From: a virus
Taxonomy: Duplodnaviria; Caudoviricetes
IMG/VR virus record: IMGVR_UViG_3300030419_003532
Location: 588-64,587 of that record
Length of the DNA: 64,000 bases
Direction: 5' to 3' (one strand)
The notes beneath the pieces were generated by a model. The model did not search any database, was not told where the DNA came from, and was given only the letters and a program-made list of their open reading frames with translations. The translations under genes were made by a program, and so were the position numbers. Every line of letters starts with the position of its first letter. Position 1 is the first letter of the stretch. Positions 14,696-51,830 of the stretch are shown one piece after another.

Positions 14696-14753
14696 AAAGA
14701 GAGATATTTTAAGGTATCTCTCTTTTTTTTGTTAAAAGTTTTTCGTATATTTG
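14696..14753 (+). terminator. Terminator followed by a promoter -7 element
   Basis: AAAGAGAGATA...TATCTCTCTTT + T tract; TATATTTG at 14746-14753. Confidence 0.7.
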
Positions 14754-14776
14754 TAGAATCACTTATTACATTTTTT

Positions 14777-32121: not shown

Positions 32122-35100
32122 ATGCTTGTAGAAGAACAAAAATATGCTAATGTATCCGAAGGGATAAAAAGTATTTTTCAGCTTAACAAAAAAGAAGAAG
32201 ATGAAGGAGATGTTAAAAATGAAAAGTATAATAAAGATGTAGATATTACTTCTTTAAGTGATTCGGATTTGACTCCTTTACAATTTGCAGCTAAAGAGCT
32301 TGCTTTAACTATGTCTGATAAACCTGATATAACTGATGAAGAAATTTTTGAGTTGTTTCCAGAGTTTAATAATAATCCTGATATTTTAAAATCAGCTAAA
32401 AGCATGGCCTTTACTTTTGGAGGAGATGCCTTAAAAAAAAAAGATACAACTGTCGTTTCCGAAGATTCTTCAGAAGATGTAGAAAACTTAGAATCAGAAA
32501 CCCCTTCTACTTCAAAAGATAGACAAACATTAGATAATATAACATCCAAATGGCCTGCCTTAAAAAATCTAGGTGATATTGTTTTAAACCCAGATGAATC
32601 TTATGATATGTCTGAATATGGTGCGGGATTTATAGAATATCAATCACCTGAACAAGGAGCAGTAACTTATGCGGAAGGAGTAACTTTAGAACATCCGTCA
32701 CCTGGAAATCACGCTATTACTTATAATCCTAATAAAACTAACGAACAATCTATTAAGTTAGATATGCTTCATGCTATGCATTCTATCCCTGAATATAAAG
32801 GGCTTTATGATGAATTTGCAACATCATTCAAATCGTCTAAATTTGAAGGAGAGATAAAAAGAAGTTATAAAGCATCAAAAGCTGAAGGTTATAAAGATAG
32901 TTATGAAGTTTTTGAAACAAATTTTATTGATGGAATTATAAGAAACTTATTGTTTGAAGGTACACCAGAAGATTTTAAAAAACATAAATACTGGGATAAA
33001 GCTAGTGAAGTATATTTATCTGATGAAAATATTAAATCATCTTTTAATGAATTAAAAACATATTTAGAAACAGGAGGTGAAGAAACAGAAAAAGTAGAAT
33101 TTTCAGAAAAAGATTTAAAAAGAGCTCAATCTTATATAGACAAAGATTTTGCTGCAGATGAAACTGTTAATAAAGAAGCTTATGACTATTTACTTAGTCA
33201 GCAAAAACCTCAAAAAGAAATCATACCAGAAATCCCTTCAGATTTTGATTCTGATGTATTTAAACAAGGAATTATAAGAAGCGAGGCTACAGGGTATTTA
33301 ACAGGAACTCCAGACAATTTAGATGATAAAGATTATTCTATAAGTAGTAAACATTCTTCTGCTGTTGGCCCTTATCAAATAAGATATAATGAATTTAAGG
33401 ATATATTAAAAGATAAATGGGGAATAAAATCTAAAAAAGAATTTATAGGTAATAAAAAAGTTCAGGAAGAATTTATGAGTTATATGCTTGAAAATAAACC
33501 AGGCAGATATACTTATATGGCTAATAGGATTCAAAAAGATTATAGCGAATATATTCCTAAAGACATGAGTTATCAGGATTTAGTATCCTTACAGCATTTT
33601 ATCGGACATGGAAATTCAAGAAAATTATTTGCTAAAGTTAGAGATAATAAAGATTTTAACTCTGAGGATGTATATGATTTTATTCCTAAAGGAAAAAATA
33701 TGAGTGTTGGAGATTATCTTAAAAAGATGAGCGTTCCTAAAAAATCAAAAGAGAAAGAAGAACCTACTGGCATGCTTGATAAATATGGGAATTATATAAA
33801 TCCCTTAGACGACCCTAATTTAACTGCTGGTGGTGACGATGCAGTTCAGGCATATGTTAATTCTCAGATTGACGATGATGAAGAAGAAGAAAAAAAGAAG
33901 AAGAAAAAAAGCGGAATTAGATATGTAGAAGTACTAGATGCTGACGGAACTCCTATAAAAATACCTGAAGGTAGACCAGGACAATCTTCAGAAGAGTATC
34001 GTAAAGAGTTAAATGAGGCTTTTGAGAGTCTTGCTAATTCAGAAACTATAGAGGAAAATAATAGAATTAAAAAAAGCCTTGGATATAATATTATTGACAG
34101 AGCTAAAGAGCATGGCACTACAATAACTGCTGAAGAGTTTCAAATTGTATTAGGAGATGCTTATCAAAAATTTGAAGAAAGCAGATTAGAGACTTATCAA
34201 AAAGTTATAGAATCTATTGATAATAATAAAGATATGAATCCTTTGAATAAAGGCTTTATAGCTAATGTAACAGAGTTAGTTAAAACTGAACATCTTTATA
34301 CTCTTCATAAAGCTCTTATGGAAAGAAATATTGATTTACATCCTTCTCAAATTGATTCAGAAAGATTAAAGATTCTTCCTCATGTATTGCATCATTATTA
34401 TAGTAAATTAGGAGAAGGGGATGCTTATCAAGAATTTGTAAAATATATTGAGGAAAAAGGTGGTCTTGAAGAGATACATAAGTTAAATGTTGAAGCTTGG
34501 CGTTCCGCAATTGGAGGTGAACAGATGGTTATTTCAAATGAATTAATGGGAGGAGGAGTAATAGAAGATGCTTTTGGAGATATTAAAGATATGACTCCAG
34601 CTGAAAGAAGCAAGTATATTATAAACGCTGCTCATCATATATTAGAGAGAGAGAAATATGATGATATACCAGAGTCATGGATTTCGGAAGTAGCTAATGT
34701 AATAGCAAATAAATATCATAAGGAATCTCCAGAATATAAGGATATTGAAGAAGAAGCAAGAGTAGCAGCCTTAGCCGTATATAATGAAGAAAATAATACT
34801 GATTATGATACTCCTGGAGTTGAGATACAAGGGTTTCAACAAACAATAATGGAATTAAATGAATCTGATTTAACAGTTCAAGAAAAAGTTAATATAATAA
34901 AAGATAAACATAATATTATTGTAAAAGCTAATGGAGCATGGAAATGGACAGATGATTATAAAAATGTTTTAAATGATGTAATACAGAAATCTGACGATAA
35001 AGTTTGGAAAAAATATGTGAAAGATAATGGAATGGAAAAATTTCATCTTGCAGAAGTATTTGAAAATTCTTTAGCAGGACAACTATTTACTTTGTTTATA

Positions 35101-38100
35101 GACAGGCCAATAAATCCAGAATGGGGAGTTGAATATAGCGAATTAGAAAACTTTATAATTGGGGTTGGTTCTGTAGCTTTTGATTTAGCAATACCCGTTA
35201 TAGGTAGTGGTGTAGGTAAGGTTAAAAGCGTTAAAATTGCTCAACAAAGAGCTTGGCTTAACGAGCAAAAACTTATAAAAATTCAACAATTTAGAAACCA
35301 GGGAATGAAAGGTAAGCAGTTACAAAATGCAATTATAAGAGCTGATTTAGCTATGGAGGCTCAGCTTGCAAAATATGCAACTAAAACTGGATATTATTCC
35401 TCTGCTGCTACTTTAGGTACTTGGTTTGCGGCTATGGATATGACTGCTCAATATAAAGAAACTCATGATGTTACAGAGATACATTATTCAGATGTTTTAT
35501 TAGAAGGAGCGAAGGGAGGTGTTTTAGGGCCAGTAACTTTTGGAATAGCTAGAGGAACACAAAGAATTAATAAGTATGTTAAAGATAGAGGGCTCCCTCT
35601 TATTATAGAGAAACCTCTTCTTGGATATACTTGGTTTCAAGGTGTTGCAGTTGAAGCAGGGGCTTTTATGACAGCTGAATCAATAGCACATGGTACAGCT
35701 CCTAGCTTTGAACTTTATAAAGATAATTTAGCTTTTATATTAGGTCTTAGGTTTGCTAAAATGCCTTTTACTCTTGCACAGCATGAGGCTTGGGATTTTA
35801 AAAAATCTAATAAAGGCCCTTATAGTTTTAAACTTACGGAAGCAGAAAGAGAATATATGGGTATAGACTCTAAACTTAATGATGCACAAGTTTATAATGC
35901 TTTAGTTAGAGAAATGAATAAATCTGAAAAAAGTGCTGAGGCTATGATGAATATTATGCCTATGAGTGTATTAAGTAAATATATTTGGGCTAATGTAGGA
36001 GGGAAAATTAATTTAAGTAATCCATTAGATGCTGTAGGAGTAGAATACAGGTCTGTTGAAGGAAAGCCTAATGTTGTGGAAGCTGTTAATTCTCAAGGAG
36101 AAGTTCTTTTTGTAGAAAGATTTAAATCTGAAAAAGAAGTTATTGAGTATATAAATAAAAAGAATACTGAAGCTCCAGGGGTTATAGCAAGAGAAATCCT
36201 AGAAAAGGATGTGTTAACGATAGAAAGTAAGGCTAAGCTTAAAGCTGCATTAGATAAATTAGGGGTAACAAGAGAAAGGGCTGAAGAGATACTTAATCAA
36301 GAAAAGAAAAACCCTGAAGAGCAAGTTGTATCAGATGCTGTCTCTGAAGCTGTAAAAAATGTTTATGCTGAACAAAAAACTAAACAAGACAAACAACAAA
36401 AAGAATTTGATGATGCTATTAGAGAAGAAGCTGTTAAAGTATTAGAAAAAAATAATATTACAAAAGAAAACCCAAACTGGGATGAATTATTAGCTAAAGA
36501 AATATTAACTCAAACAGAAAAAGCATTAAAGCAAGCAGAAGTAATTCAAACAGAAAAATTAAATAAGGCTGCAGAAATACTGTTAGAACAAGAACAAAAA
36601 GAAGCAGCTGGAATTAAGGAGACTGATAACTGGATGATAAGGGTTAATTTAGCTTTGGGTAAAAAACCTGAAGCTCCTATTGAAGTAACTGCAGACAATA
36701 TAAAGATTCTTAGAGAAAGTGCTATTACAGATAATCAAAAGGCTGCTGTTGAGGATATTATTAAAGCTACCGAATCTCTAAAAAACTTAAAAGGAAAAGT
36801 TATTGTTCATACAGATAATGCAAGTTATCAACAAGTATTAGACGCTGTTGAAAAAGGAAATATAGCTAATGTTACTGGTGGTCATAGGAATTTAAAAACT
36901 GGAGATATACATTATAATTTAAATGCGGTTAATAAATGGACTGCCACTCATGAAGCGGGACATGCATGGACTGAAACTATTAGAGAAAAGAATCCTGAAA
37001 AATATCAAAAGATTGAAGATAAGGTTTATGAGCTTATTAAAGATACTCCTGAATATGCTGGTATATTAGATTTTATATCTACAAAAACAGAAGGAGGAGA
37101 ATTTGTTTATAAGACAGAGCAACAACAAAAAAATGAAGCTTTAGTAGAATTTTCTGCTAGAGTAGCTAAAGGGGATTATAAAATAAAAGAAAATAATAAG
37201 TTTGTAAATAAAGCTAAGATACAATTAAATAAATTAATGGAAAGTATTGGGGTGGAATATAGATTTGCTACTAATGATGAAGTTATAAGTTTTGTAAATA
37301 AAATATCTAAGCAAGTAGGAAAGGGCAAGGTTCTTGAAGAGCAGGTACTTATAGAAGGGTTTAAAGATGAAGCTAATTTAACCAGAAGAGAAGAGGTTAG
37401 TAAAGATATGCCAAAGAATCAGCTTAGAGTAAACCAATCTAAAAAACAATTTGAAAAAGAGATTAAAGATATAATAGAAAAGAAAAAAGGTTCCTTCGCT
37501 AATATTACCGCTCAAAATCCAGGAGCAAAAGAATTATCTCCTGCAGAAAATGCAGAACGAAATAAAAAATTATATTCTAGGTTAGTAGAAATGGGATATA
37601 AACCTATTCTTATTCAAGGGAAGCATGGGGTGGCAGAAGATTCTTTTTATGTTAAAGGAATAACTATAAAAGATGCTGTAAAATTAGGAAAAGAATTTGG
37701 TCAAGAATCTGTTGCTCATAGTGAAGGTTTATTATATACTAGCGGTAAGAATGAAGGTAAAATGCAGAAATCTACGGGTAAGGTTGAGTTTAATCAAGAT
37801 GTAAAAGATTATTATAGTATTATAGAAACTAAAGAAGGAGGATATAAATATCAAATTGGGTATGAAGAAAGTTTTGAAAATATTCCTTATGAACAAGTAA
37901 GAGGAGAGTATACTTATTCTTCAATGGTTCGTGGAGAGAAAGCAGGTAGGAAAGAAAGTGATTTTAATGCTGGTATTGAATCTATTAAAGAAGGTTATTC
38001 TGATAATATTATGAGTATTGAAAAGAAATATGGTACTTCAATACCAGGAGATAAACAAAAAAATAAAGAAATTAAAAGGGTTAAAAAAGATTTAATAAAA

Positions 38101-41100
38101 TATATAAAAGGCTCAGATTATTTGAGTAAAGGAGTTAAAAAATCTGTATTAGAAGAAGCTGTTAAAATAAAAACTTCTCAACAATTAGATAGATTTATAT
38201 CTAATGTTGAAGAGATGTCTGAAGCTCAATCTTTATCATCTAATATATCTCATGTAAATAATTTAGGTAAAAAAGTAAAAAAGAAACAATCTAAAGGTCT
38301 TTATGGGGACAAAAGTAAACTTGTTGAAGAGTTTTTAAATAAAGATTTTTCACAGATAACAGACCCTGCTCTTGTAGCTGAAGTTAATAATATTTTAGTT
38401 GATTTAAATAGACGTAAACAGCCTCTTGTAAACCCTAAAGAAATTGAGGTTCTTACAGAAAAATTAGATAATGTTATTGGTACTATAGAGGCTTCTCAAC
38501 CTAAAATTCAAGGAGTTGAAAAGCTGAATACACGGATGGAAAAGATAGAATCAACATTAAAAGATGCAAAATTTGACGTAACATCTACAGAAGGGGCTAA
38601 TGAAGTTATATCTTTAGGTAGAAGTATAGAAGCGTTAAAAAAATCTCTTTATTTATCAGAAACTGAAGGTAAGATAAGCCTTGCTGAATCTCAGAAAATA
38701 CAAGAAAAAATTATTAAATTATCATCTAAGATACAAGGAAAGGTTACTGAGTTTAATACAGAGCGATTTAACCTATCAAAAAATATATTAAAAAATTCTG
38801 ATTTAAGCTCTTATAATAAATATCAAAGAGAAATAATAGAGAAGCTTAAAGAAGTTGATTTTGTTGATAATATTGGGTATAATGACAATATGTATATTGC
38901 TTCTATAAATATATCAAATGGATTCCCTCCTATTAATAATATAAGCAAACTATTAGTTGAAGCTAATAATGGAAGACACGGAAATAATCTATCAGATTTA
39001 TTATCTGAAAGAATAGATAAATGGGCTGGTAAGAAAAAGTATGGTGTTGGGAAAACAGGTTTATGGAGTATGATTCCAACAAATTCTAAATTATTACAAG
39101 AAAGGATGGGGTATAGGCCTTTATCTTTAATTTCTGAATTTTTTAGAGCTGAAGCTGATGTTGAGCATGCTGGGTTAATAGATAAAGCTATTATTGCTCC
39201 TCTTACTAGAAGTTTTTCTAGACATGCAAAAGGGGTTAGAATGGATATAAATGAATGGCAAAATATTTATTCCTCTAAATTAGATAAGGTTTCAAATTGG
39301 ATGATGGATGAAACATCAGGAAGAATACTAGCGATTCCTTTTACTCAAAAATTAAATCCTCTTTATCATAAAAAGCAAAGTTCTGATAATAAGATAGGGG
39401 TTATATTAGCTCAGATAGAAAGAAACTCTCATGATGGTCAGAATGTTTTAAAAACTATAATAGAAAATAAAAGTTTATTTAATCATTATAGTAAATCAGA
39501 GCAATTATATTTAAAAACTATATATAAAAATCTTCCTAAAAAAACAGTTGATGGTAAGGAAGTGATAGATATTGATGCTGCTATTAAAGGATTGACTAAA
39601 AGAGAGAAAAAAATTCTTGATAAATTTAGAGAGTTTACAGATAATGTTTTAAGTCCTAAACAGCAGCTTGCAAATGAATTACGTGGTATTCCTTTTGAAG
39701 TAGTAGAAAATTACTTTCCTCATATATTAAAACCAGGACAGAAAGCTCCTGTTGTTGCTACAGAATTTGAACAATGGGCTGAAAATATTTTTATTAATAA
39801 CAGTAAGATACAGTCTGATGCTGGTAAACAAAGAACTTCTACTGATATTTTAGCTTATGAATTTAATGTTAATAAAGTTATGATGGATAGAATTATGCAG
39901 GTGAATCGTGATTATTATTTAACACAAACTATAAATGAAGTTCGTGAGTTAATAAATAATGGAAAATTAAATAGCGGAAAAGATTATCATATGTATTTTG
40001 ATGCTTTATCTAACAGAATGAGAGAAGCTGTAGAATTAGATTTACATAGAAGCTCTAGCTTAATAAATCAAGAGCTTTTATCTCCTTTTATGACTGCTAC
40101 TTATAGTACAAAATTATTAAGACCAGGGAGGTTGGCTGGTGAGGCTGTTAGTGAAACTATAAGGGTTGGAATAGGAGCTTCAGAAAGACCTTTTCAAGAT
40201 TTGCCTAATTCTTTTAAATCTGTAGCTGATAGAGCTGAAACAAATATTTATAATTCTACAAAAATTGCTGAAGATTTATATCTAAAAACATTTTCACAAA
40301 ATAGTGGTAAAAATATTGGTAAAGAAAATATGAATACCGTATTAAACGAAATTTTAAAAATGACAGATAGTCCATTTATACATAGGTATTCAAGATGGGA
40401 TGTTGAATTTGGAAAAGAAGTTGGGAGAGAGAAGGGTTATTTAAATAAATTTAGTAATTGGGGATTAAGTCTTGTAGATAGAAATACATTATTTATGGCT
40501 TATATGCCTGCCTTTAATAAAGAGTTTAAAAGCATAACTGGAAAAGAATTTGATTATTCTGCATTTAGAGACCCTAAATATAAAGAAACTCATAAACAAG
40601 CAATATTAGATGCTGCAGCTATTGGGGATAGAGCTGCTGCACAATGGAAGAATATTGCTGTAAAGGGAGCTGCTCCTTCAAAAATACGTACTCCTTTATC
40701 TTTATTTGATTTAGCTGGAGTAAAGAGAACTAGCGAATGGGCTCCTGTTTTAACCTATATGAGTTCTTTTGGTGCTCTAGAGACAGCTATGTATCAAAAA
40801 TCAATTAGAGATGTTATGAGTGGAGAAAGTGCAAATACTAAAGCCTTAGGAGGTAAGAGGGCTGTTGCTATTCTTGGTGCTGGGATAACGTATGGTACTA
40901 TTATTGGCCTTGAAATAGCATGGGGTAAACATCTTATGGATAGGCATATAATAGAGACAAGCGATGAGTATGACGCTATGAATAAGTATGACAAAGAACA
41001 AGCTTTAAAAGCAGTTGATGACGAGTGGAATGAATATGTAGACGGGGTTTTTAAGGTTAGTGGATTAAAAAAGCAGATAGTTTCTAATACTGCCTTTTTA

Positions 41101-41691
41101 GTTAACTCTAAATATTCTCAAGCTATGCGTATGTCTTTAGTGGGATTTGGAGGAGCATATCAGCAGTGGTTAAAATCTGATGAATCTACTAGAGAATTTG
41201 ATAAATCTGCTTTAGTAGAAGAGAGTGAGGCTACAAAACAATGGCTTTCAGAAATTATGGGAGAAGATGGTAATAATGTAGACGCACTTCTTAGAGGGGG
41301 TATATACGCAAAGCCTGCTGCAGATGTAGGAGGTGTAGCAGAACAAATGCTTCCTCATATAGATATGGCTATGGAAGTTATGATTAAAGACTTTCCTAAA
41401 GATTTCTGGGAATGGTATCAAGAAGGTCATCATGACCAGCTTGAAGGAGCTGCTTTAACACATGCTAAATACAGAGATGAATTACAGTTTGCTAACTTGG
41501 TTCAGCAAGGAATAAGAATGTATTTTATGTTTAGAGGAACAGCAGTGCCTGGAGACAGATATGTATCAACATATTATAAAGAAATGATGAAAAGATACAA
41601 CTATCCTACAGTACCATATTTTAAAATGAAAGGAGAGGGACATGGAGAACCTGCAGGTTTTGGTAAACCAAAGGGTCATGGTAAAAGATAA
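32122..41691 (+). CDS. Giant internal virion polyvalent protein (3189 aa)
   Basis: Lysozyme-like segment (IIRSE...SSAVGPYQI), hydrophobic segments, zincin HEAGH, DUF3293-like segment (ITAQNP...EN..RN...EDSF...FGQESV). Confidence 0.7.
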   Translation: MLVEEQKYANVSEGIKSIFQLNKKEEDEGDVKNEKYNKDVDITSLSDSDLTPLQFAAKELALTMSDKPDITDEEIFELFPEFNNNPDILKSAKSMAFTFGGDALKKKDTTVVSEDSSEDVENLESETPSTSKDRQTLDNITSKWPALKNLGDIVLNPDESYDMSEYGAGFIEYQSPEQGAVTYAEGVTLEHPSPGNHAITYNPNKTNEQSIKLDMLHAMHSIPEYKGLYDEFATSFKSSKFEGEIKRSYKASKAEGYKDSYEVFETNFIDGIIRNLLFEGTPEDFKKHKYWDKASEVYLSDENIKSSFNELKTYLETGGEETEKVEFSEKDLKRAQSYIDKDFAADETVNKEAYDYLLSQQKPQKEIIPEIPSDFDSDVFKQGIIRSEATGYLTGTPDNLDDKDYSISSKHSSAVGPYQIRYNEFKDILKDKWGIKSKKEFIGNKKVQEEFMSYMLENKPGRYTYMANRIQKDYSEYIPKDMSYQDLVSLQHFIGHGNSRKLFAKVRDNKDFNSEDVYDFIPKGKNMSVGDYLKKMSVPKKSKEKEEPTGMLDKYGNYINPLDDPNLTAGGDDAVQAYVNSQIDDDEEEEKKKKKKSGIRYVEVLDADGTPIKIPEGRPGQSSEEYRKELNEAFESLANSETIEENNRIKKSLGYNIIDRAKEHGTTITAEEFQIVLGDAYQKFEESRLETYQKVIESIDNNKDMNPLNKGFIANVTELVKTEHLYTLHKALMERNIDLHPSQIDSERLKILPHVLHHYYSKLGEGDAYQEFVKYIEEKGGLEEIHKLNVEAWRSAIGGEQMVISNELMGGGVIEDAFGDIKDMTPAERSKYIINAAHHILEREKYDDIPESWISEVANVIANKYHKESPEYKDIEEEARVAALAVYNEENNTDYDTPGVEIQGFQQTIMELNESDLTVQEKVNIIKDKHNIIVKANGAWKWTDDYKNVLNDVIQKSDDKVWKKYVKDNGMEKFHLAEVFENSLAGQLFTLFIDRPINPEWGVEYSELENFIIGVGSVAFDLAIPVIGSGVGKVKSVKIAQQRAWLNEQKLIKIQQFRNQGMKGKQLQNAIIRADLAMEAQLAKYATKTGYYSSAATLGTWFAAMDMTAQYKETHDVTEIHYSDVLLEGAKGGVLGPVTFGIARGTQRINKYVKDRGLPLIIEKPLLGYTWFQGVAVEAGAFMTAESIAHGTAPSFELYKDNLAFILGLRFAKMPFTLAQHEAWDFKKSNKGPYSFKLTEAEREYMGIDSKLNDAQVYNALVREMNKSEKSAEAMMNIMPMSVLSKYIWANVGGKINLSNPLDAVGVEYRSVEGKPNVVEAVNSQGEVLFVERFKSEKEVIEYINKKNTEAPGVIAREILEKDVLTIESKAKLKAALDKLGVTRERAEEILNQEKKNPEEQVVSDAVSEAVKNVYAEQKTKQDKQQKEFDDAIREEAVKVLEKNNITKENPNWDELLAKEILTQTEKALKQAEVIQTEKLNKAAEILLEQEQKEAAGIKETDNWMIRVNLALGKKPEAPIEVTADNIKILRESAITDNQKAAVEDIIKATESLKNLKGKVIVHTDNASYQQVLDAVEKGNIANVTGGHRNLKTGDIHYNLNAVNKWTATHEAGHAWTETIREKNPEKYQKIEDKVYELIKDTPEYAGILDFISTKTEGGEFVYKTEQQQKNEALVEFSARVAKGDYKIKENNKFVNKAKIQLNKLMESIGVEYRFATNDEVISFVNKISKQVGKGKVLEEQVLIEGFKDEANLTRREEVSKDMPKNQLRVNQSKKQFEKEIKDIIEKKKGSFANITAQNPGAKELSPAENAERNKKLYSRLVEMGYKPILIQGKHGVAEDSFYVKGITIKDAVKLGKEFGQESVAHSEGLLYTSGKNEGKMQKSTGKVEFNQDVKDYYSIIETKEGGYKYQIGYEESFENIPYEQVRGEYTYSSMVRGEKAGRKESDFNAGIESIKEGYSDNIMSIEKKYGTSIPGDKQKNKEIKRVKKDLIKYIKGSDYLSKGVKKSVLEEAVKIKTSQQLDRFISNVEEMSEAQSLSSNISHVNNLGKKVKKKQSKGLYGDKSKLVEEFLNKDFSQITDPALVAEVNNILVDLNRRKQPLVNPKEIEVLTEKLDNVIGTIEASQPKIQGVEKLNTRMEKIESTLKDAKFDVTSTEGANEVISLGRSIEALKKSLYLSETEGKISLAESQKIQEKIIKLSSKIQGKVTEFNTERFNLSKNILKNSDLSSYNKYQREIIEKLKEVDFVDNIGYNDNMYIASINISNGFPPINNISKLLVEANNGRHGNNLSDLLSERIDKWAGKKKYGVGKTGLWSMIPTNSKLLQERMGYRPLSLISEFFRAEADVEHAGLIDKAIIAPLTRSFSRHAKGVRMDINEWQNIYSSKLDKVSNWMMDETSGRILAIPFTQKLNPLYHKKQSSDNKIGVILAQIERNSHDGQNVLKTIIENKSLFNHYSKSEQLYLKTIYKNLPKKTVDGKEVIDIDAAIKGLTKREKKILDKFREFTDNVLSPKQQLANELRGIPFEVVENYFPHILKPGQKAPVVATEFEQWAENIFINNSKIQSDAGKQRTSTDILAYEFNVNKVMMDRIMQVNRDYYLTQTINEVRELINNGKLNSGKDYHMYFDALSNRMREAVELDLHRSSSLINQELLSPFMTATYSTKLLRPGRLAGEAVSETIRVGIGASERPFQDLPNSFKSVADRAETNIYNSTKIAEDLYLKTFSQNSGKNIGKENMNTVLNEILKMTDSPFIHRYSRWDVEFGKEVGREKGYLNKFSNWGLSLVDRNTLFMAYMPAFNKEFKSITGKEFDYSAFRDPKYKETHKQAILDAAAIGDRAAAQWKNIAVKGAAPSKIRTPLSLFDLAGVKRTSEWAPVLTYMSSFGALETAMYQKSIRDVMSGESANTKALGGKRAVAILGAGITYGTIIGLEIAWGKHLMDRHIIETSDEYDAMNKYDKEQALKAVDDEWNEYVDGVFKVSGLKKQIVSNTAFLVNSKYSQAMRMSLVGFGGAYQQWLKSDESTREFDKSALVEESEATKQWLSEIMGEDGNNVDALLRGGIYAKPAADVGGVAEQMLPHIDMAMEVMIKDFPKDFWEWYQEGHHDQLEGAALTHAKYRDELQFANLVQQGIRMYFMFRGTAVPGDRYVSTYYKEMMKRYNYPTVPYFKMKGEGHGEPAGFGKPKGHGKR

Positions 41692-44766: not shown

Positions 44767-45825
44767 ATGATTAGGGGATTAATCTTAATAATTTTCATTT
44801 TTATATCCTTTTCTGGAAAGGCACAATTTGATTTAAAAGAATTTTACAAAAAAACATTTAAGTTTTCTACTTTTTATGGAGCTGTAAGTGGAGGTACTTC
44901 AATTTCAGATGAAGAAGTTTTTAACGTTTCTACGGGGTTACTAGAGCAGAGTAGTATACAGACACCTTTTGACTATAATATTGCTTTAGGAGTGCGGAAA
45001 ATAGCTAGATTCGGCTACGAGAACAAAGCAAACACCTTTTATGATGGTACAGAGTCAACATATAGTGATGCTGCTACTATTGGTAAAGTTAAAGGGTTTG
45101 AATTTTTATTTGAATACAACTATAAAAGACAGGAGGGGGTTAACTACTTAGACCAGAATCATTTTCTTAGATATGTAGGTAAAAATTACATACTAAAAGG
45201 AGAGTATGTAGAGGATGGTTTTGCAGATATAAAATACTTTGAAACTTCTCAAAGATATAGATATAATAAAAATAATAAACTTTCATTTAATATAGGGGCT
45301 GTTCAAAGAATGTCAGAACCTTATGGTTACGACCCTTTAGAGGAATGGCTACTTTCAAACGGTAGCTTGCATTACACTTATTTAGCAATACAAGAAGGTT
45401 ATACTATAGATGTCGCTAAAAGCGAATATAAAAACCCACAAGGAGAGATTGTGGCTACTAGCGTAGAAGTTTGGGAAGCTGTGGTGATACCAGAAGTATT
45501 GGCAGATTATGTAGAGAAGAAAAGAGATGAATTAGATAGGAAGATGCTCCAGTCTTTTGTTGTGGGTTTTGATTTCTATCATTATAAAAAAGATTTTTGG
45601 TTACACTCTTGGGGTAGTCTTATGCCTTGGCATTATGATGATGGAGGCAGTTATTCTTATCATAATTACAACAACGGAGAGCAGTGGTATGACTATTCTG
45701 GAGGTTTAATATTTGGATATAAAGTAACTAAAAATTTAGGTACATTTATAGAGGGAAAATATAATAAATATTGGAATCGTGAATGGTACGATTTTAAATT
45801 TGGTGTTAACTATATTATACTATGA
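44767..45825 (+). CDS. Outer-membrane beta-barrel protein
   Basis: Signal peptide (…GKA/QF), Tyr/Phe/Trp-rich alternating strands, terminal strand YDFKFGVNYII. Confidence 0.65.
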   Translation: MIRGLILIIFIFISFSGKAQFDLKEFYKKTFKFSTFYGAVSGGTSISDEEVFNVSTGLLEQSSIQTPFDYNIALGVRKIARFGYENKANTFYDGTESTYSDAATIGKVKGFEFLFEYNYKRQEGVNYLDQNHFLRYVGKNYILKGEYVEDGFADIKYFETSQRYRYNKNNKLSFNIGAVQRMSEPYGYDPLEEWLLSNGSLHYTYLAIQEGYTIDVAKSEYKNPQGEIVATSVEVWEAVVIPEVLADYVEKKRDELDRKMLQSFVVGFDFYHYKKDFWLHSWGSLMPWHYDDGGSYSYHNYNNGEQWYDYSGGLIFGYKVTKNLGTFIEGKYNKYWNREWYDFKFGVNYIIL

Positions 45826-46031
45826 ACATAACTAACGAGCAACTACATCAAGAAATGCTTATTATGAAGCAGGATTTAAGAGAGATTAAAAAGAAACTTT
45901 TAGACCCAGATGATGGTGCAGTTGCTAGAGTAAATAGAAACACATCATTTAGAAAAGGAGCTCAAAAGACCTTGTGGTCTATATGGCTTGCAATTATAGG
46001 AATATTAGGTAAATTATTATTTTTTGATTAA
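45822..46031 (+). CDS. Coiled-coil protein with C-terminal TM helix
   Basis: Heptad N-terminus, hydrophobic C-terminus. Confidence 0.6.
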   Translation: MNITNEQLHQEMLIMKQDLREIKKKLLDPDDGAVARVNRNTSFRKGAQKTLWSIWLAIIGILGKLLFFD

Positions 46032-46032
46032 G

Positions 46033-46308
46033 ATGGCGAAAGAATTAAACGAAGATACAAGTTTTAAATTAAGTATAAAAACACTTATTGCAATTGGATT
46101 TGCTATGGCAACTCTTATTAGTATGTATTTTATGTTGCAATCTGATATAGAAGAAGCTAAAGAGCTTCCAAAACCAGATGTAACTAGAATGGAGTTTAAT
46201 ATGAAAGATGTTAATATACGTCAATCTATTGAGCATACAGAGAAAGCTGTTGATGAGATTAAAGAAGATTTGAAAAGAATGGAGGATAAAATAGACGATT
46301 TGAGATGA
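46033..46308 (+). CDS. Membrane-anchored coiled-coil protein
   Basis: TM at the N-terminus, then coiled coil; ATG start at MAKEL. Confidence 0.6.
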   Translation: MAKELNEDTSFKLSIKTLIAIGFAMATLISMYFMLQSDIEEAKELPKPDVTRMEFNMKDVNIRQSIEHTEKAVDEIKEDLKRMEDKIDDLR

Positions 46309-46655
46309 AAGAAACTTGGAGAGTATTTAGTGTGTATATGTTGATTTTAATATTAATGTTATTTTGTGGAATAACTTTTGGACAGGTTAAGGTAGTACAA
46401 TACAATGCGGATTGGAATAATGCAAACAAAGTTGAATGGTTAAATAAATTAACAGACTGCAGTATAAAATATATAGATATAACAGAAAAACCTGAAGCAC
46501 AAAAAAAATATGAAATAGTAGTTGTACCGACAATTATTGTTTTTAAAGACGGAGAGGAAGTTAAAAGATTCCAAGCAGACATATCTTTTAGTATAAAAGC
46601 TAAATTAGAAGATGTACAAGAAATTATTGACGAACAATTAATGAGTGATTTTTAA
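46305..46655 (+). CDS. Exported thioredoxin-fold protein lacking CxxC
   Basis: Signal/TM; VVQYNADWN in place of F.A.WCxxC; YEIVVVPTIIVFKDGEEVKRF cis-Pro motif. Confidence 0.7.
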   Translation: MKETWRVFSVYMLILILMLFCGITFGQVKVVQYNADWNNANKVEWLNKLTDCSIKYIDITEKPEAQKKYEIVVVPTIIVFKDGEEVKRFQADISFSIKAKLEDVQEIIDEQLMSDF

Positions 46656-46766
46656 ATGAAAAAAATATTATTTATATTAATATTAGTTTTAACAAGTTGC
46701 TCATTACAAAAACAGACCTGCAACAAAGAAACAAAAAAATGTTGTGAAAAAAAAGAATTAAAATGA
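46656..46766 (+). CDS. Small lipoprotein, 36 aa (MKKILFILILVLTS/CSLQKQTCNKETKKCCEKKELK)
   Basis: Hand translation; lipobox LTSC; abuts both neighbours. Confidence 0.65.
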   Translation: MKKILFILILVLTSCSLQKQTCNKETKKCCEKKELK

Positions 46767-46840
46767 AAGGAAAAATTTGTAAATTAGTGTATAAGATTAG
46801 CTGTGGTAAAATTTGCTTCGGCTGGTGTGGAACAAAATAA
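46763..46840 (+). CDS. Cationic 4-Cys micropeptide, 25 aa (MKGKICKLVYKISCGKICFGWCGTK)
   Basis: Hand translation; ATGA overlap upstream; stop directly abuts ATG 46841. Confidence 0.6.
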   Translation: MKGKICKLVYKISCGKICFGWCGTK

Positions 46841-47209
46841 ATGTATTCTTATAAAATAAAATTAGATAGAGTAGTTGATGGGGATACTATTGATGCTTAT
46901 ATAGACTTAGGCTTTGATGTTTCAATAAAAAAAAGAATTAGATTTATGGGGATTAATACTCCTGAATCAAGAACTAGAGATTTAGAAGAAAAAGCAAGAG
47001 GTTTAGCTGCTAAAGATAGAGTTAAACAATTATTAGAGGGAGCTAATTTAATAAAATTAGATTCTCACGGAGTCGGAAAATATGGAAGATGTCTAGGAGA
47101 ATTACATATAGATGTAGTAGATGGGCAAGAAAAAATGACGTTAGAAAGTATAAATGAATTATTAATTAAAGAGGGTCATGCTGTAGAGTATCATGGCGGT
47201 AAAAGATGA
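46841..47209 (+). CDS. Staphylococcal nuclease (thermonuclease)-like protein
   Basis: RVVDGDT, RIRFMGINTPE, GKYGRCLG, INELLIKEGHA. Confidence 0.85.
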   Translation: MYSYKIKLDRVVDGDTIDAYIDLGFDVSIKKRIRFMGINTPESRTRDLEEKARGLAAKDRVKQLLEGANLIKLDSHGVGKYGRCLGELHIDVVDGQEKMTLESINELLIKEGHAVEYHGGKR

Positions 47210-47384
47210 TGTTATGATAAACTGGATAAATAGTTGGAAGTCAGGTAATAAAAGAGAAAAATATAATATTGAGTTAAGATTAGGTAGGTTTACTTTACTT
47301 GAAATAAAATTTTGTGTTTGTACAATTCCTTGTGATTGTGCTCGTTTTAGAATGATAGTATTAAATTTTGGATTTGAGTTATGA
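47193..47384 (+). CDS. Small hypothetical protein
   Basis: ORF track; probable start at MINWINSW. Confidence 0.55.
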   Translation: MAVKDDVMINWINSWKSGNKREKYNIELRLGRFTLLEIKFCVCTIPCDCARFRMIVLNFGFEL

Positions 47385-50164
47385 AAAAAATATTATTTTT
47401 ATTATTATTAATTCCTTTGTTTGTATTTACGCAAACAAAAGAAACTATTATTCATATAAACACAGATAACTACCCACAGGAAACTAGATGGGTATTACAC
47501 GCTGATAGTTTGTATGGAGCTATATTAGGACAAGTAAACTATGGATATTATACAATTCCAGACTCAGCTTATGCAGATACTCTATATATACCAGATAGTC
47601 TAACAAATATTACGTTTGTAATATATGATAGTTACGGAGACGGGATGTCTCCTCCAGGAAGTTATTACGTTTCTATATGTAATGATACTATAGTTAGCTA
47701 TCCAAACCCTTCCTTTACAACAGGGTTGTATTCTAACAGGATGGTACCTCAATGTATGCCTAACCCTCCTCCATCTGGGAATTGTGTTCCTTCAGTTCTA
47801 AATATAAACTTAGACCAATTCCAAAGCGAAACAACTTGGGAGATACATGATTCAACAGGAACTTTACTGTACGCAGGAGGCCCTTATTCACAAGCCCCTG
47901 ATTATCAACCTCAATACGAGAATTTATGCTTACCTGTAGGAGAACTCACCCTAACCATGTATGATTCTTATGGTGACGGGTTAGCTGGTAGCTTGTGGGG
48001 AGGGAATGATGGCTCATATTATCTCATGCAATGTGGGGACACCTTAGTTTATGGAGATGTTCCAAACTTTGGCACCGATACCCTACATGTATTTCAATCT
48101 GACACATGTTTGCCTCCACCACCAGTACCAGGATGTATGGATGAAAATTACGTGGAATATAATCCGCTAGCTACAGTTGATGATGGTAGCTGTTCAATCC
48201 TTAAAATATACGGATGTACAGATAGTACAATGTTTAACTATGACCCATTAGCTAACACAATGGATTATGTTGATAGTTGTATGTATACTTTAATATTGTA
48301 TGATTTAGCTGGAAACGGATGGATAGGAAGCAGATTAGATATTATGCAAGATGATACCACATCTTATTATTTAACTAGTGGTTTTTTACAAACATACACA
48401 TTAAATTTAAAATCCCCAGAAGAAGTCAGAGCAAAATTCTTTATTAACGCTCAAGCTTCAATGACATCCATAGAATGTGGGTTTAGTTTAATTAGTTCTA
48501 CTGGAGATACCGCCATACATGTTCCTGGAGGTTTTTCAAATCCTATATTACCTTTTTATGAATATTCAGGAACTACATATTGCGGAAATGAATGTATTCC
48601 TATTGTAACAGGATGTATGGATACTATAGCTTATAATTATAATAATTTAGCTAATACTAATGACATTTGTTATTATAATCCTGGATGCACTTCTCCTGCT
48701 TACTTAGAATACTATACACAAGGATTTACAGCAGATGTAGATGATGGTAGTTGTAGTATTTTAGCTGTATTTGGATGTACAGACAGTACTTCTTTTAATT
48801 ATAACTCATTAGCTAACGTGGATAACGGTGGATGTATTCCTGTAATAACAGGGTGTATGAATCCATTAGCTTTTAATTATAATGCTTTAGCTAATACTCC
48901 AGATACATGTATATCTATAATTTACGGATGTACAAACCCTTTAGCTTTTAATTTTGATTCTTTAGCTAATACTGACGATGGAAGCTGTATAGCTATTATT
49001 TATGGCTGTACCGATAGCACAATGTTTAATTTTATGCCTAGTGCAAATATAGACGACAGTTCTTGCGTGCCTTATATATATGGGTGTATGGATGCTACTA
49101 TGTGGAATTATAATTCTCAAGCAAATACTGATAATGGTAATTGTATCCCATTTATGTATGGTTGTACTGATTCAACCATGTTTAATTATGACCCGTTAGC
49201 AAATACAGATAACGGCACCTGTGAACCTTTTGTATATGGATGCACAAATCCAATTGCTTTAAATTATAATCCACAGGCAAATACAGATGATTTCTCCTGT
49301 ATATTACCAATCTATGGATGTATGGATTCTACAGCATTTAATTATGACCCTTTAGCTAATGTAGATAACGGAAGTTGTATCCCTATAATATTAGGATGTA
49401 CTAATCCGATAGCACTTAATTATTGTGATACCTGTAATACTGATGATTTTAGTTGTATACTTCCGATATATGGTTGTACTGATAGTACTATGTTTAATTA
49501 TAATCCTTTAGCCAATGTTGATAACAATTCTTGCGTTCCTTTTATCTATGGTTGTACTGACCCTTCTATGCTCAACTACAATCCACAAGCTAATACAGAA
49601 GATTTTAGTTGTATTGCTTATATTTATGGTTGTACCGATAGCACTGCTCTTAACTATGACCCGTTGGCTAATACTGACAATGGTTCGTGTGTGGCTGTGG
49701 TTGAAGGATGTATGGATGCAAATGCCTACAACTACGACATTACGGCTAATGTTAATGACTCTGCTTCTTGCTTATATAATGCTAATTGTATCACTGGTGC
49801 GGGTAATCCTTATTGGCTCAATGACCCTTGTTATGCCTGGGTAATATCAGTAGATGATTATTGTTGTGAGAATGAATGGGATAATATATGTCAGCTAACT
49901 TATAATTATTGTGACAATAATTGGACTGGAGCACAACCTCCAGCTAGAACAAACGCAGATAATATATTTGTTTACCCAAATCCAACAAATAATATTTTAT
50001 ATATTAATAAAACTGTTGATTTAGAAGTTTATAACAGTATTGGAGAATTAATTATAAAAAGTAATGGAAATATGGTTGATTTATCTGATTATAGTAATGG
50101 AATTTATAATATTATGATTATATTTGAAGGTAATAATAATACCTACAAAATTATAAAAAGATAA
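47381..50164 (+). CDS. T9SS type-A sorting-domain protein with Cys-rich GC[TM][DN] repeats
   Basis: Signal peptide; D.Y..ET.W/DSYGDG domains; 17 GC[TM][DNS] repeats; C-terminal VYPNP...VYNSIGE...DLS..SNGIY...KIIK. Confidence 0.85.
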   Translation: MKKILFLLLLIPLFVFTQTKETIIHINTDNYPQETRWVLHADSLYGAILGQVNYGYYTIPDSAYADTLYIPDSLTNITFVIYDSYGDGMSPPGSYYVSICNDTIVSYPNPSFTTGLYSNRMVPQCMPNPPPSGNCVPSVLNINLDQFQSETTWEIHDSTGTLLYAGGPYSQAPDYQPQYENLCLPVGELTLTMYDSYGDGLAGSLWGGNDGSYYLMQCGDTLVYGDVPNFGTDTLHVFQSDTCLPPPPVPGCMDENYVEYNPLATVDDGSCSILKIYGCTDSTMFNYDPLANTMDYVDSCMYTLILYDLAGNGWIGSRLDIMQDDTTSYYLTSGFLQTYTLNLKSPEEVRAKFFINAQASMTSIECGFSLISSTGDTAIHVPGGFSNPILPFYEYSGTTYCGNECIPIVTGCMDTIAYNYNNLANTNDICYYNPGCTSPAYLEYYTQGFTADVDDGSCSILAVFGCTDSTSFNYNSLANVDNGGCIPVITGCMNPLAFNYNALANTPDTCISIIYGCTNPLAFNFDSLANTDDGSCIAIIYGCTDSTMFNFMPSANIDDSSCVPYIYGCMDATMWNYNSQANTDNGNCIPFMYGCTDSTMFNYDPLANTDNGTCEPFVYGCTNPIALNYNPQANTDDFSCILPIYGCMDSTAFNYDPLANVDNGSCIPIILGCTNPIALNYCDTCNTDDFSCILPIYGCTDSTMFNYNPLANVDNNSCVPFIYGCTDPSMLNYNPQANTEDFSCIAYIYGCTDSTALNYDPLANTDNGSCVAVVEGCMDANAYNYDITANVNDSASCLYNANCITGAGNPYWLNDPCYAWVISVDDYCCENEWDNICQLTYNYCDNNWTGAQPPARTNADNIFVYPNPTNNILYINKTVDLEVYNSIGELIIKSNGNMVDLSDYSNGIYNIMIIFEGNNNTYKIIKR
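48611..49772 (+). repeat. Tandem coding repeats of ~78 nt (26 aa: YGCTDSTMFNYDPLANTDDGSCIP)
   Basis: 15 consecutive degenerate units visible in DNA and protein. Confidence 0.85.
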
Positions 50165-50234: not shown

Positions 50235-50585
50235 ATGGCAAAAAAATATGCAAAAATAACAGGAAATTCAGCACAGATATTAGTTGCTAGGCAAAAAGTT
50301 GCAAACACAACAACAAAAGGATTCACCAGAACATTTAGTGGGAAAACTATAGTTGGAATGTCTTTATGTAATATACATGCTACAGATTCTGTGGATGTAG
50401 ACTTATTCATATATGACGCTGCAAATACTACAGAAATAGCTAGGATTTTACACAATAAAACAATAGAAGCTGGAACAACTTTGTTTTTAGAAGGGCATGA
50501 AGTTTCTTTTAATAACGGAAAGGATTATGATTTAAGAATACAATTAAGTGCTGCAGATAGTGCTGTTGATGTTATAATAAGATAA
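50235..50585 (+). CDS. Small beta-sandwich protein, probable virion component
   Basis: SLCNIH...VDVDL...TIEAGTTL.L pattern. Confidence 0.5.
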   Translation: MAKKYAKITGNSAQILVARQKVANTTTKGFTRTFSGKTIVGMSLCNIHATDSVDVDLFIYDAANTTEIARILHNKTIEAGTTLFLEGHEVSFNNGKDYDLRIQLSAADSAVDVIIR

Positions 50586-50600
50586 ATTAAAAAATAAATT

Positions 50601-50993
50601 ATGAGTATACTAACAAAAATATTTTCGGCTGGAGCTAGCGATTTAGTAAAAAATGTAGGTGGAGTTATAGATAATCTACATACTTCTAAAGAAGAAAAGC
50701 TTGAAGCTGAAAGAAAAATTAAAGACATGATAATGGGTTACGAAGCTGAGATGCAAAAGCAAGTAACCGAAAGATGGAAAGTAGATATGCAATCTGATTC
50801 ATGGCTTTCAAAAAATATAAGACCTATGGTTTTAATATTCTTAGTAGTATCTACAGTATTATTAATTTTTATTGATGCTGGGATAATACAATTTGAAGTT
50901 AAGGCTTCTTGGGTGGATTTATTACAGCTCGTTTTAATTACTGTAATTGGAGCATACTTTGGAGGTAGGTCGCTTGAAAAGGTTAAAAAATGA
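50601..50993 (+). CDS. Holin (GTA 3TM-holin-like)
   Basis: RW..DM.SDSWLSKNIRP, TM helices, YFGGRSLEK. Confidence 0.8.
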   Translation: MSILTKIFSAGASDLVKNVGGVIDNLHTSKEEKLEAERKIKDMIMGYEAEMQKQVTERWKVDMQSDSWLSKNIRPMVLIFLVVSTVLLIFIDAGIIQFEVKASWVDLLQLVLITVIGAYFGGRSLEKVKK

Positions 50994-51460
50994 AATTAAA
51001 AGTATTAAGATTTAGTAGTCAGGAAGACTCAACTTCAGGAGCATTATTTAAAGAGCGTGATGATAGTAATTTAGAGTTCCTATGTTACACATTAGAAGAC
51101 GAGCATAGAGATAGTAAAATACGTGGCGAGACAAGAGTGCCTGCTGGTATTTATAATATAAAATTAAGAACTGAAGGCGGTTTTCATGAAAGATATAAAA
51201 AAAGGTTTTCTAGTATACATAAAGGAATGTTACACGTCACTGAAGTACCAGGTTTTGAGTACATCCTTATACATACTGGTAATACTGATGAACATACTGC
51301 TGGATGCCTTCTTGTGGGTGATTCACAGGAAAACAATATTATCGTCAAAGATGGTTTTATTGGAAAATCCACTAATGCGTACAAAAGAATATATCCAGAT
51401 ATTGCTAGAGCAATTGAAAAAGGAGAAGAGGTTATTATAGAATATATAGATTTAGCTTAA
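50990..51460 (+). CDS. DUF5675-family putative endolysin (L,D-transpeptidase-like His/Cys)
   Basis: CYTLED, VPAGIY, ILIHTGN...HTAGCLLVG; next to the holin. Confidence 0.75.
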   Translation: MKLKVLRFSSQEDSTSGALFKERDDSNLEFLCYTLEDEHRDSKIRGETRVPAGIYNIKLRTEGGFHERYKKRFSSIHKGMLHVTEVPGFEYILIHTGNTDEHTAGCLLVGDSQENNIIVKDGFIGKSTNAYKRIYPDIARAIEKGEEVIIEYIDLA

Positions 51461-51461
51461 A

Positions 51462-51830
51462 ATGGCTCTTCAAAAATTAGTAATACATTCTACTAAAACT
51501 CCTTATGGAATTTATGTCCCCTTAGATGAAATACAAGAAGAACATATAACGGATAGAGGATTTTCTGAAATAGGATTCTCCGATATTATTACTTTTGAAG
51601 GCGTTATAGAGTCTACCTTACAAATAAGAAACGGAGAGAAAACTCATGACTGGGGAATGACAGACTCAAGACATGTAGCTTATATGGGTGGTATATCTGA
51701 AGATGGTTTTAATATAGAAGATACTAGAACTCCAGAACAAAGAGAATCTTTACGAATATATATAGAATTTCTAAAAAGAAGATACCCTAGAATAGAAATT
51801 GTAGACTATACAAAAACAAGAATTATTTAG
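51462..51830 (+). CDS. Degenerate T7-lysozyme-like amidase
   Basis: LVIHST, RGFSEIGF, VAYMGG, DTRTPEQRESL; lacks the C-terminal GH...K.CP. Confidence 0.6.
   Translation: MALQKLVIHSTKTPYGIYVPLDEIQEEHITDRGFSEIGFSDIITFEGVIESTLQIRNGEKTHDWGMTDSRHVAYMGGISEDGFNIEDTRTPEQRESLRIYIEFLKRRYPRIEIVDYTKTRII

Follow-up and report, generated by a model that had tools for sequence, protein, structure and literature searches.

The locus and its conserved genes

Nine open reading frames (ORFs), named g1 to g9 here, fill positions 44767–50164 on the + strand of a 64,000-nucleotide stretch of viral DNA. This stretch, referred to as the window, is nearly the whole of a 64,587-base IMG/VR virus record with a completeness rating of 97%. 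The window contains a recognisable terminase, portal and capsid-type protein, and its + strand carries genes from about 6.8 kb to 51.8 kb. Neighbouring ORFs of the nine overlap by 4 nt or are separated by 0–1 nt. Upstream of them are tail-fibre-like genes, and downstream a holin, a DUF5675 protein and an amidase (Table 1). The original prediction for this DNA described nine tightly coupled genes between tail and lysis genes, including an outer-membrane β-barrel, an exported thioredoxin fold, a staphylococcal nuclease (SNase), a lipobox ORF and a cationic micropeptide with four Cys each, and a Cys-rich cargo for type IX secretion systems (T9SS), with no integrase. All of the ORFs were confirmed with this spacing, and these descriptions of them stood. 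A search of the record, rated 97% complete, detected neither a tyrosine nor a serine recombinase, and there are no tRNA genes in the window.

Linkage between the genes was counted in the 80 best (close) viral loci, using a separate profile for each gene. The barrel g1 is accompanied by g3 at 70 loci, by g4 at 66, and by both at 66; a g9-type ORF of at least 400 residues is present at 49 loci, and together with g3 and g4 at 48. The 32 incomplete loci all end less than 4.5 kb from the module, and several show a cut g9 in tblastn searches, and a g9-like gene is found wherever a close locus has DNA enough to hold one. The spacing of g3 and g4 is −10 to +15 nt in 65 of 66 loci, the two genes being 782 nt apart in the other. 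Two gene orders were seen, g1-(add-ons)-g3-g4-(gap)-g9 and g3-g4-g9-g1, with the accessory genes at changing positions. Because only g1, g3, g4 and g9 are linked across relatives, the unit has four genes, not nine. Conservation of the gene neighbourhood, which had been suggested as the check on a single nine-gene cassette, thus extends to four of the genes and fails for g2, g5, g6, g7 and g8, which are mobile add-ons, separate accessory genes.

A more distant clade was found using the barrel P0137 as query (28–33% identical to g1 in alignment A3). Here the order g1-g3-g4 is kept at 29 of 31 loci, the other two being cut. Directly after g4, 23 of the 26 testable loci encode a protein of 170–196 residues, called mini-g9 below, while the trio g1, g3 and g4 stands without any g9-like gene at the other three (L089, L090 and L092). 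The mean column identity of the trio across both clades is 58% for g3, and 51% and 42% for the other two. The phages carrying it are diverse: three complete genomes have terminases 52, 42 and 41% identical to that of the window, and in two further carriers the identity is only 28–30%, over part of the protein. The barrel is strongly conserved, at 60–76% identity even beside unrelated tail genes.

The module contacts lysis genes in every arrangement seen, including the carriers with 28–30% terminase identity. In the window the order is g9-g10-holin-DUF5675-amidase. Locus L093 has a small two-helix ORF followed by g1-g3-g4-mini-g9-endolysin-holin (endolysin phrog_894, E 1.3e-33; holin phrog_3427, E 6.2e-29), L111 has a DUF5675-type gene (phrog_1501)-holin-g1-g3-g4-mini-g9, and L089 has g1-g3-g4-endolysin-holin. 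Among close loci, g1 adjoins the holin in L031, and in L005 and L074 the order is g1-g2-DUF5675, with g2 directly before DUF5675. A relative of the holin was detected at 14 of 29 distant and 15 of 80 close loci, counts obtained with single-sequence profiles from loci of which many have cut flanks. Relatives of the DUF5675 protein in crAss-like phages are annotated as L,D-carboxypeptidase/transpeptidase and also lie beside a holin. Since the module is always beside lysis genes, it probably acts on the host envelope late in infection.

The module is common in viral DNA. Relatives of g1 were confirmed in 440 of 444 candidate viral-contig stretches, and in a protein collection they form 3784 clusters at 90% identity, all unnamed, with 405 representatives at 50% identity. 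None of 50,697 deposited phage records contains a relative of g1 or of g3, and the only thioredoxins found there using g4 are unrelated ones in three records of Gram-positive phages. Searches of the main texts of open-access papers and preprints gave no description of barrel, g3 and g4 as a set. P0177 alone as query found no viral locus. A search of genome contigs gave eight loci, all in metagenome-assembled genomes (MAGs) of mixed taxa, with no isolate genome and no prophage among them; the contigs of L081, L084, L085, L086 and L087 were assigned to MAGs labelled Parvibaculum, Nitrosopelagicus, Rickettsiales and Maricaulis. Given this mixture of taxa, the contigs are most likely phage contigs that were binned wrongly, and the MAG labels are therefore uninformative on the host. 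The closest deposited terminases are 36–40% identical, from Flavobacterium, Cellulophaga, Maribacter and Tenacibaculum phages and from uncultured phages. A Gln at position +1 after the signal peptide, as found in several of the exported products, is described as the Q-rule of Bacteroidetes in one study (PMC5837995), and a passage of another notes it for genes of Porphyromonas phages (PMC10367356). From the +1 Gln and the flavobacterial phage terminases we infer a Bacteroidota host.

Table 1. Positions and predicted nature of the features at the locus
Feature	Position	Strand	Basis
g1, exported outer-membrane β-barrel, 352 aa, core	44767..45825	+	signal peptide, AlphaFold2 model
g2, 69-aa protein, accessory	45822..46031	+	N-terminal helix, C-terminal hydrophobic stretch
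g3, type II inner-membrane protein, 91 aa, core	46033..46308	+	helical periplasmic tail
g4, exported thioredoxin fold without active-site cysteines, core	46305..46655	+	PF00085
g5, lipobox ORF, 36 aa, 4 Cys, rare accessory	46656..46766	+	
g6, cationic micro-ORF, 25 aa, 4 Cys, 6 Lys, rare accessory	46763..46840	+	
g7, staphylococcal-nuclease fold, accessory, probably cytoplasmic	46841..47209	+	PF00565, phrog_452
g8, small Cys-cluster protein, 63 aa as listed, accessory	47193..47384	+	
g9, exported Cys-rich protein, 927 aa, variable fourth core member	47381..50164	+	
g9 residues 140–204, small β-sandwich domain, D-S-Y-G-D-G motif	47798..47992	+	hhalign
g9 residues 412–797, 26-aa repeat with two Cys, about 15 copies	48614..49771	+	Cys spacing and motif scan
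g9 residues 864–927, T9SS type A C-terminal sorting domain	49970..50161	+	PF18962, TIGR04183
g10, 116 aa, between g9 and holin	50235..50585	+	
Holin	50601..50993	+	phrog_3427, 2.7e-32
DUF5675 protein, probable cell-wall peptidase	50990..51460	+	PF18925, 1.8e-27
Amidase-like lysis protein	51462..51830	+	phrog_822, 8.1e-21

The gene between g9 and the holin, g10, has no family match and has relatives at 14 of the 80 loci. No transcription-unit boundary resulted from scans for terminators (5 found, 3.7 expected), sigma-70 promoters (49 found, 59.8 expected) or a Bacteroidota promoter pattern (4 found, 3.4 expected), and a search of sequencing runs with the window gave no RNA run among those listed, while one DNA run, probably the source sample, contains 0.97 of the window's sequence words. 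Upstream of the tail-fibre-like genes there is a single ORF of 3189 aa (32122–41691, +). A tail-region ORF of 597 aa (30325–32118, +) has a weak match to Thioredoxin_9 at residues 93–132 (E 0.0023), which is below the cut-off.

The three conserved, predicted envelope proteins

The signal peptide of g1, read from the sequence, ends before Gln. The AlphaFold2 prediction, run from an alignment of 64 sequences, has 14 strands (predicted local distance difference test score, pLDDT, 74.9; predicted template modelling score 0.67), with a disordered loop at residues 80–106 and an insert at 184–256. Foldseek placed NanC first (E 1.5e-6), and VIA-align gave Tsx (Z 11.3, root-mean-square deviation 4.3 over 191 aligned residues), EstA (11.0), KdgM (10.9), NanC (10.9) and NalP (10.5), with FapF also among the best matches. 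In the ESM Atlas the matches are viral unnamed clusters only, and the nearest named proteins are generic porins and autotransporters, at 0.93. Judged from the model, these are generic matches to outer-membrane barrels of 12–14 strands. By sequence, g1 belongs to no Pfam, PHROG, NCBIfam or PADLOC family, and has no match to a solved chain at E up to 1.

In structure, the nucleoside channel Tsx comes first and the sugar-acid porins KdgM and NanC next, and the barrel might accordingly be an uptake channel (for nucleosides, for example) that feeds replication, its neighbours being unrelated. We consider this barely credible. Autotransporter barrels lie within 1 Z unit of Tsx, which points to a common fold only, and there is no sequence likeness to any of the solved chains. 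A late gene beside lysis genes would also be badly timed for nutrient uptake, and the strict linkage to g3 and g4 would be left without explanation.

Barrels of the PorP/SprF type anchor T9SS type B cargo encoded beside them. Like g1, they are outer-membrane barrels of about 300–350 aa, and the gene next to them, in a Bacteroidota context, encodes a large secreted repeat protein. However, g1 does not match PF11751 at E 0.1, and hhalign against 11 PorP/SprF proteins from two Bacteroidota MAGs gave a probability of 6% (alignment A1) or 15% (A3). The cargo in the window is of type A, not B, and g1 does not co-vary with the type of g9 tail (see below).

A lipobox followed by a C-x-x-P-K-x-C-C-x-Q head opens 34 of 73 related barrels (e.g. 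L002, L007, L016 and L020), as well as three of 56 g9-type ORFs (L053, L067 and L076); such a head may mark a lipoprotein or a long signal peptide, two cases that look alike in sequence. The remaining barrels, including that of the window, have a plain signal peptide ending before Gln. Distant barrels also show the +1 Gln by eye.

The true start of g3, common to its relatives, is the ATG at 46033, giving a protein of 91 residues. In an alignment of 42 sequences, inspection shows a hydrophobic stretch at about residues 15–37 followed by a charged helical tail, the periplasmic part being about 55 residues. This is the pattern of an inner-membrane spanin (i-spanin), namely a type II protein with an N-terminal membrane helix and a helical periplasmic domain. 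There is an invariant R-M-E-F block. The window protein contains no Cys, and no Cys occurs among the conserved columns of the alignment. No Pfam, NCBIfam or PADLOC family matches g3. Against Rz-like PHROG families, the window protein reaches E 0.074 (phrog_739), and one of the 42 homologues matches phrog_7686 at E 0.0033. In two cultured phages with holins of family phrog_3427, a small gene beside holin and endolysin encodes a membrane helix and coiled coil: Nonlabens phage P12024L gp13 (L121, 2190–2456) and Vibrio phage 1.238.A gp24 (L120, 3538–3879). No lipoprotein partner is annotated near either gene. The g3 profile matched neither of the two, so their likeness to g3 is by eye only.

Thioredoxin shares its fold with g4, which matches PF00085 at 26.9 bits (cut-off 23.5). 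A profile of the g4 alignment matches solved thioredoxins at E 2.9e-12, aligning across the active-site region. The differences are that g4 is exported by means of a signal peptide and that both catalytic cysteines are replaced: W-N-x-x-N stands in place of CxxC, and its two Asn are invariant across all 45 aligned sequences. The same 45 also have Gln directly behind the signal peptide. On sequence grounds, g4 is predicted to be a periplasmic thioredoxin fold that is incapable of redox chemistry. The suggestion that it serves as a redox helper for a disulfide-rich cargo is thus unsupported, and the Cys-free g4 is a plain example of a redox fold recruited for a different task.

The variable exported partner and the accessory genes

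The fourth core member, g9, contains 51 Cys and has a signal peptide with Gln at +1. Its C-terminal domain matches PF18962 at 30.4 bits (cut-off 27) and TIGR04183 at 26 bits (cut-off 23), and a Sec signal together with a sorting domain above curated cut-offs is the sequence pattern of a T9SS type A cargo. No Pfam family was found in g9 besides this domain, and nothing above 0.83 was obtained for its head in the ESM Atlas. The head domains differ between phages: L044 has a MAM domain, others have one to three D-S-Y-G-D-G domains, and further types occur. Tandem Repeats Finder detected no DNA-level repeat in g9, and its repeats are therefore at the protein level only.

The 26-residue repeat with two Cys also occurs elsewhere. 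Two copies lie near 18263 and 18350, at the C-terminal end of an ORF of 1222 aa (14729–18397, +) located after the window's capsid genes, and others are in proteins of 1399–1565 aa without a signal peptide in L009, L010, L012 and L064. Exported proteins and likely virion proteins therefore share this module.

A search with g9 matched 55 ORFs. Six of these are large, have no signal peptide and share the Cys repeat only, and the 49 others are close relatives of g9. Among these 49, the C-terminus is a T9SS domain in 11 and a tail of about 38 residues with a D-L-L-G-R core in 38. PF18962 matched all three of the ORFs tested that have the T9SS motif, and none of the seven tested with the short tail. 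The T9SS tag is thus a minority feature of the family, though real in the window. Sequence comparison does not support the idea of the short tail as a truncated T9SS domain: hhalign aligned the two over 8 columns with a probability of 1%. The short tail does align with the tail of mini-g9. It is present in exactly one ORF per locus, always at the C-terminal end.

On a tree of 47 barrels the tail type changes 8 times, and at least 4 of these changes are forced by well-supported branches. Clustering of the tails is barely above that of shuffled labels (mean 9.8 changes; 46–53 of 500 shuffles were as low). The mean barrel profile score is 650.0 bits at the 11 loci with a T9SS domain and 649.4 bits at the 36 with a short tail. 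In view of the 8 switches and the equal scores, the two tails are interchangeable and the barrel does not track them. The proposal that the barrel serves a T9SS cargo specifically is not supported, given this equal conservation and the lack of likeness to PorP/SprF.

In the distant clade, mini-g9 is made up of a signal peptide, a single small D-S-Y-G-D-G domain and a C-terminal tail of about 35 residues. Its alignment matches g9 residues 140–204 (hhalign E 4.2e-5, probability 70%), and its profile matches most g9 ORFs of the close clade; in both proteins the +1 Gln can be seen by eye. The predicted fold (pLDDT 76.6) has no Foldseek match at E 0.001 or better, and in VIA the best matches are generic small β-sandwiches (Z 4.8), with T9SS sorting domains at Z 4.1–4.2. 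In one subclade mini-g9 is directly followed by a Met/Gly-rich, low-complexity ORF of 167 aa that belongs to no PHROG family (L113, 10198–10701).

There is one precedent for a phage-encoded T9SS cargo, that of 'Cryophage', which is called a unique occurrence in a section of the paper describing it (PMC7468147). Like g9, it has a Sec signal and a type A sorting domain and varies between phage variants, and in that section its export by the host is presumed by the authors. g9 differs from it in lacking an enzyme domain, being composed of small β-sandwich heads and some 15 Cys repeats, in its linkage to three envelope genes, and in that 38 of its 49 close relatives carry the short tail.

Machine parts that stay constant, combined with a partner whose head varies, are the pattern of a secretion system and its cargo. 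The module could on this basis serve for surface display or export, in line with the original prediction but reduced to four genes, with g1 as outer-membrane anchor or channel, g3 and g4 as helpers in the inner membrane and periplasm, and g9 as a cargo displayed by the infected cell for adhesion, receptor masking or the exclusion of further phages. This would explain why a g9-type gene is present in all sufficient close loci, why mini-g9, where present, always directly follows g4 and why each locus has a single short-tailed ORF. It is also in keeping with the autotransporter translocators EstA and NalP, and FapF, among the fold matches of the barrel, and with the 'Cryophage' precedent. We nevertheless regard it as doubtful. 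The trio persists in L089, L090 and L092 with no g9-like gene to display, the barrel score is independent of the tail, and at least 4 and up to 8 tail switches on the barrel tree amount to no co-variation. The barrel's fold matches are generic, with no likeness to PorP/SprF, and with no integrase, display late in infection would leave a surface function little time.

Phage exclusion proteins of the outer membrane or periplasm often lie near tail or lysis genes, examples being T5 Llp, T4 Imm and Sp, and lambda Bor and Lom. The module might thus combine two unrelated functions, the trio being non-lytic (exclusion, a block of receptors or of the T9SS, or stabilising the envelope until burst) and g9 an independent adhesin of the moron type. 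In its favour, g9 swaps tail and head freely, and its 26-residue repeat in large proteins without a signal peptide hints at ligands in common with virion parts. Lambda Lom and Bor, T5 Llp and T4 Sp are however single and patchy, as exclusion genes usually are, whereas the module has three to four genes in at least two phage lineages, with the trio as a core set of 58%, 51% and 42% mean column identity. Its contact with holin and endolysin has also been kept through several rearrangements. Nor did the trio match anything in PADLOC, a library that covers host defence and not phage exclusion. Such a pairing of functions is in our view unlikely.

Among the accessory genes, g5 is the sole credible lipobox ORF in the 64-kb window, 350 nt after g3. 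Searches for spanins begin with the rare lipoprotein gene, as set out in a section of a spanin survey (PMC6139136), and g3 and g5 might therefore form an ordinary 'separated' two-component spanin in the window, the barrel and g4 serving another purpose. The three further Cys of g5 would suit this, as would a weak match to an Rz-like spanin family (phrog_6073, E 0.0012). This match and a weak one to the T4 Spackle Pfam family cover mainly the signal peptide, however, and g3 has no Cys for pairing. The mature g5 would be about 21 residues long with no Pro-rich stretch, and in close relatives, L001 for example, the module contains no lipobox ORF. Just one of the 80 loci has g5 as a separate ORF (L015), and six further tblastn matches are the N-termini of barrels. 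The Cys-rich head of g5 resembles the lipobox head of the related barrels, and the free-standing ORF looks like a detached, diverged copy of it. A spanin made of g3 and g5 is therefore highly improbable. No second lipobox ORF or other spanin pair was found in the window.

Neither g2 nor g8 has a family match. g2 is found at 11 of the 80 loci by profile (13 by tblastn) in varying positions, and g8 at 21, usually following the SNase gene and beginning at the second Met in relatives. The micro-ORF g6 has relatives at 8 loci, after g1 or g4 (L010, L018, L020, L030, L032, L034, L040 and L064), which are intact ORFs of 25–37 residues that share its N-terminal half. Being small, cationic and encoded near lysis genes, such a peptide brings to mind the disruptin of phage phiKT.

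The SNase g7 matches PF00565 at 42.5 bits (cut-off 21) and phrog_452 at 8e-38; it was the only match in a PADLOC scan, to a domain model. It occurs at 29 of the 80 loci, in four different positions. Over 130–190 bases its DNA is 68–76% identical to 'endonuclease' genes of T4-like phages of Prochlorococcus and Synechococcus, which suggests that the gene may have been exchanged between phages of unrelated marine hosts. As read from the sequence, g7 begins directly with the nuclease fold and has no export signal, and is therefore not an envelope protein. The claim that the cassette spans all compartments of the host envelope thus applies to the four core products, which are addressed to four compartments (inner membrane, periplasm, outer membrane and cell surface), and not to the SNase.

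A possible role in lysis

On the basis of these observations we propose, with a probability of roughly 40%, that the trio, usually together with g9, is a late envelope-spanning lysis helper, which would resemble a spanin but be built from unrelated parts. The trio would be made late, together with the lysis proteins. g3 would act as the inner-membrane anchor, g4 would lie in the periplasm and g1 in the outer membrane, and together they would breach or release the outer membrane in the final step of lysis, after holin and endolysin. An outer-membrane protein would thereby replace the small lipoprotein in performing the task of a spanin. In this scheme g9 would be a variable, losable partner sent outward, by the host T9SS in this phage and by means of the other, short C-terminal tail in most relatives, and it may bind ligands on the surface or debris at exit.

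This proposal draws on the conservation of the core, its contact with holin and endolysin through rearrangements and lineages, the trio's persistence where g9 is missing, and the absence of another spanin pair from the window. As an alternative for part of the cassette, a set of spanins or lysis accessories had been mentioned; as a prediction from the sequence, it fits the gene order best. There is also a published remark in its favour: according to a passage by the authors of the spanin survey cited above, an outer-membrane protein could serve as the outer-membrane spanin (o-spanin), and the same passage gives about 13% of the surveyed phages as having no spanins, including Bacteroides and Croceibacter phages (PMC6139136).

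The likeness to two-component spanins such as lambda Rz/Rz1 lies in a type II inner-membrane protein that is small and has a helical part in the periplasm, in the presence of an outer-membrane partner, and in the tightly coupled late-strand genes clustered with holin and endolysin. The differences are considerable. A 14-strand barrel of some 350 residues takes the place of the small outer-membrane lipoprotein, only 34 of 73 related barrels having a lipobox head, and a third, periplasmic protein of thioredoxin fold is obligatory. g3 itself has no Cys and belongs to no spanin PHROG.

Several points weigh against a lysis role. Surface genes near lysis or tail genes can be unrelated to lysis, as are lambda bor and lom. 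A hypervariable exported g9 has no place in a plain lysis model, and suits display or secretion. g3 is short, with its periplasmic part of about 55 residues, and stands outside known spanin families (E 0.074 for the window protein, one of 42 homologues at 0.0033). Its lack of Cys is set against the intermolecular disulfides that are near-universal in two-component spanins, according to the survey (PMC6139136), and ordinary spanins are reported in some Bacteroidota phages, as noted in passages of two further papers (PMC10136315, PMC10367356). A complex prediction for barrel, g3, g4 and mini-g9 of L116, run without controls, scored 0.00 against a mark of 0.32 and speaks neither for nor against binding.

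A broader form of the lysis proposal, which we offer only tentatively, is that the trio is a third device for breaching the outer membrane, besides spanins and cationic disruptin peptides, present in a large share of ocean Bacteroidota phages, and that its g9-type partner is tagged either for the T9SS or with a new export or anchoring signal of about 38 residues, the two having been exchanged at least 4 times. The short C-terminal tail is a candidate for a new sorting signal whether the module serves lysis or display. Should display be its true function, the module would be a surface display made by the phage, one that makes use of type IX secretion and at times goes around it.

The module is abundant in viral DNA (3784 barrel clusters, 440 stretches) and absent from the 50,697 deposited phage records, and parts that nobody has studied may therefore be at work in a common step by which marine flavobacteria are turned over.

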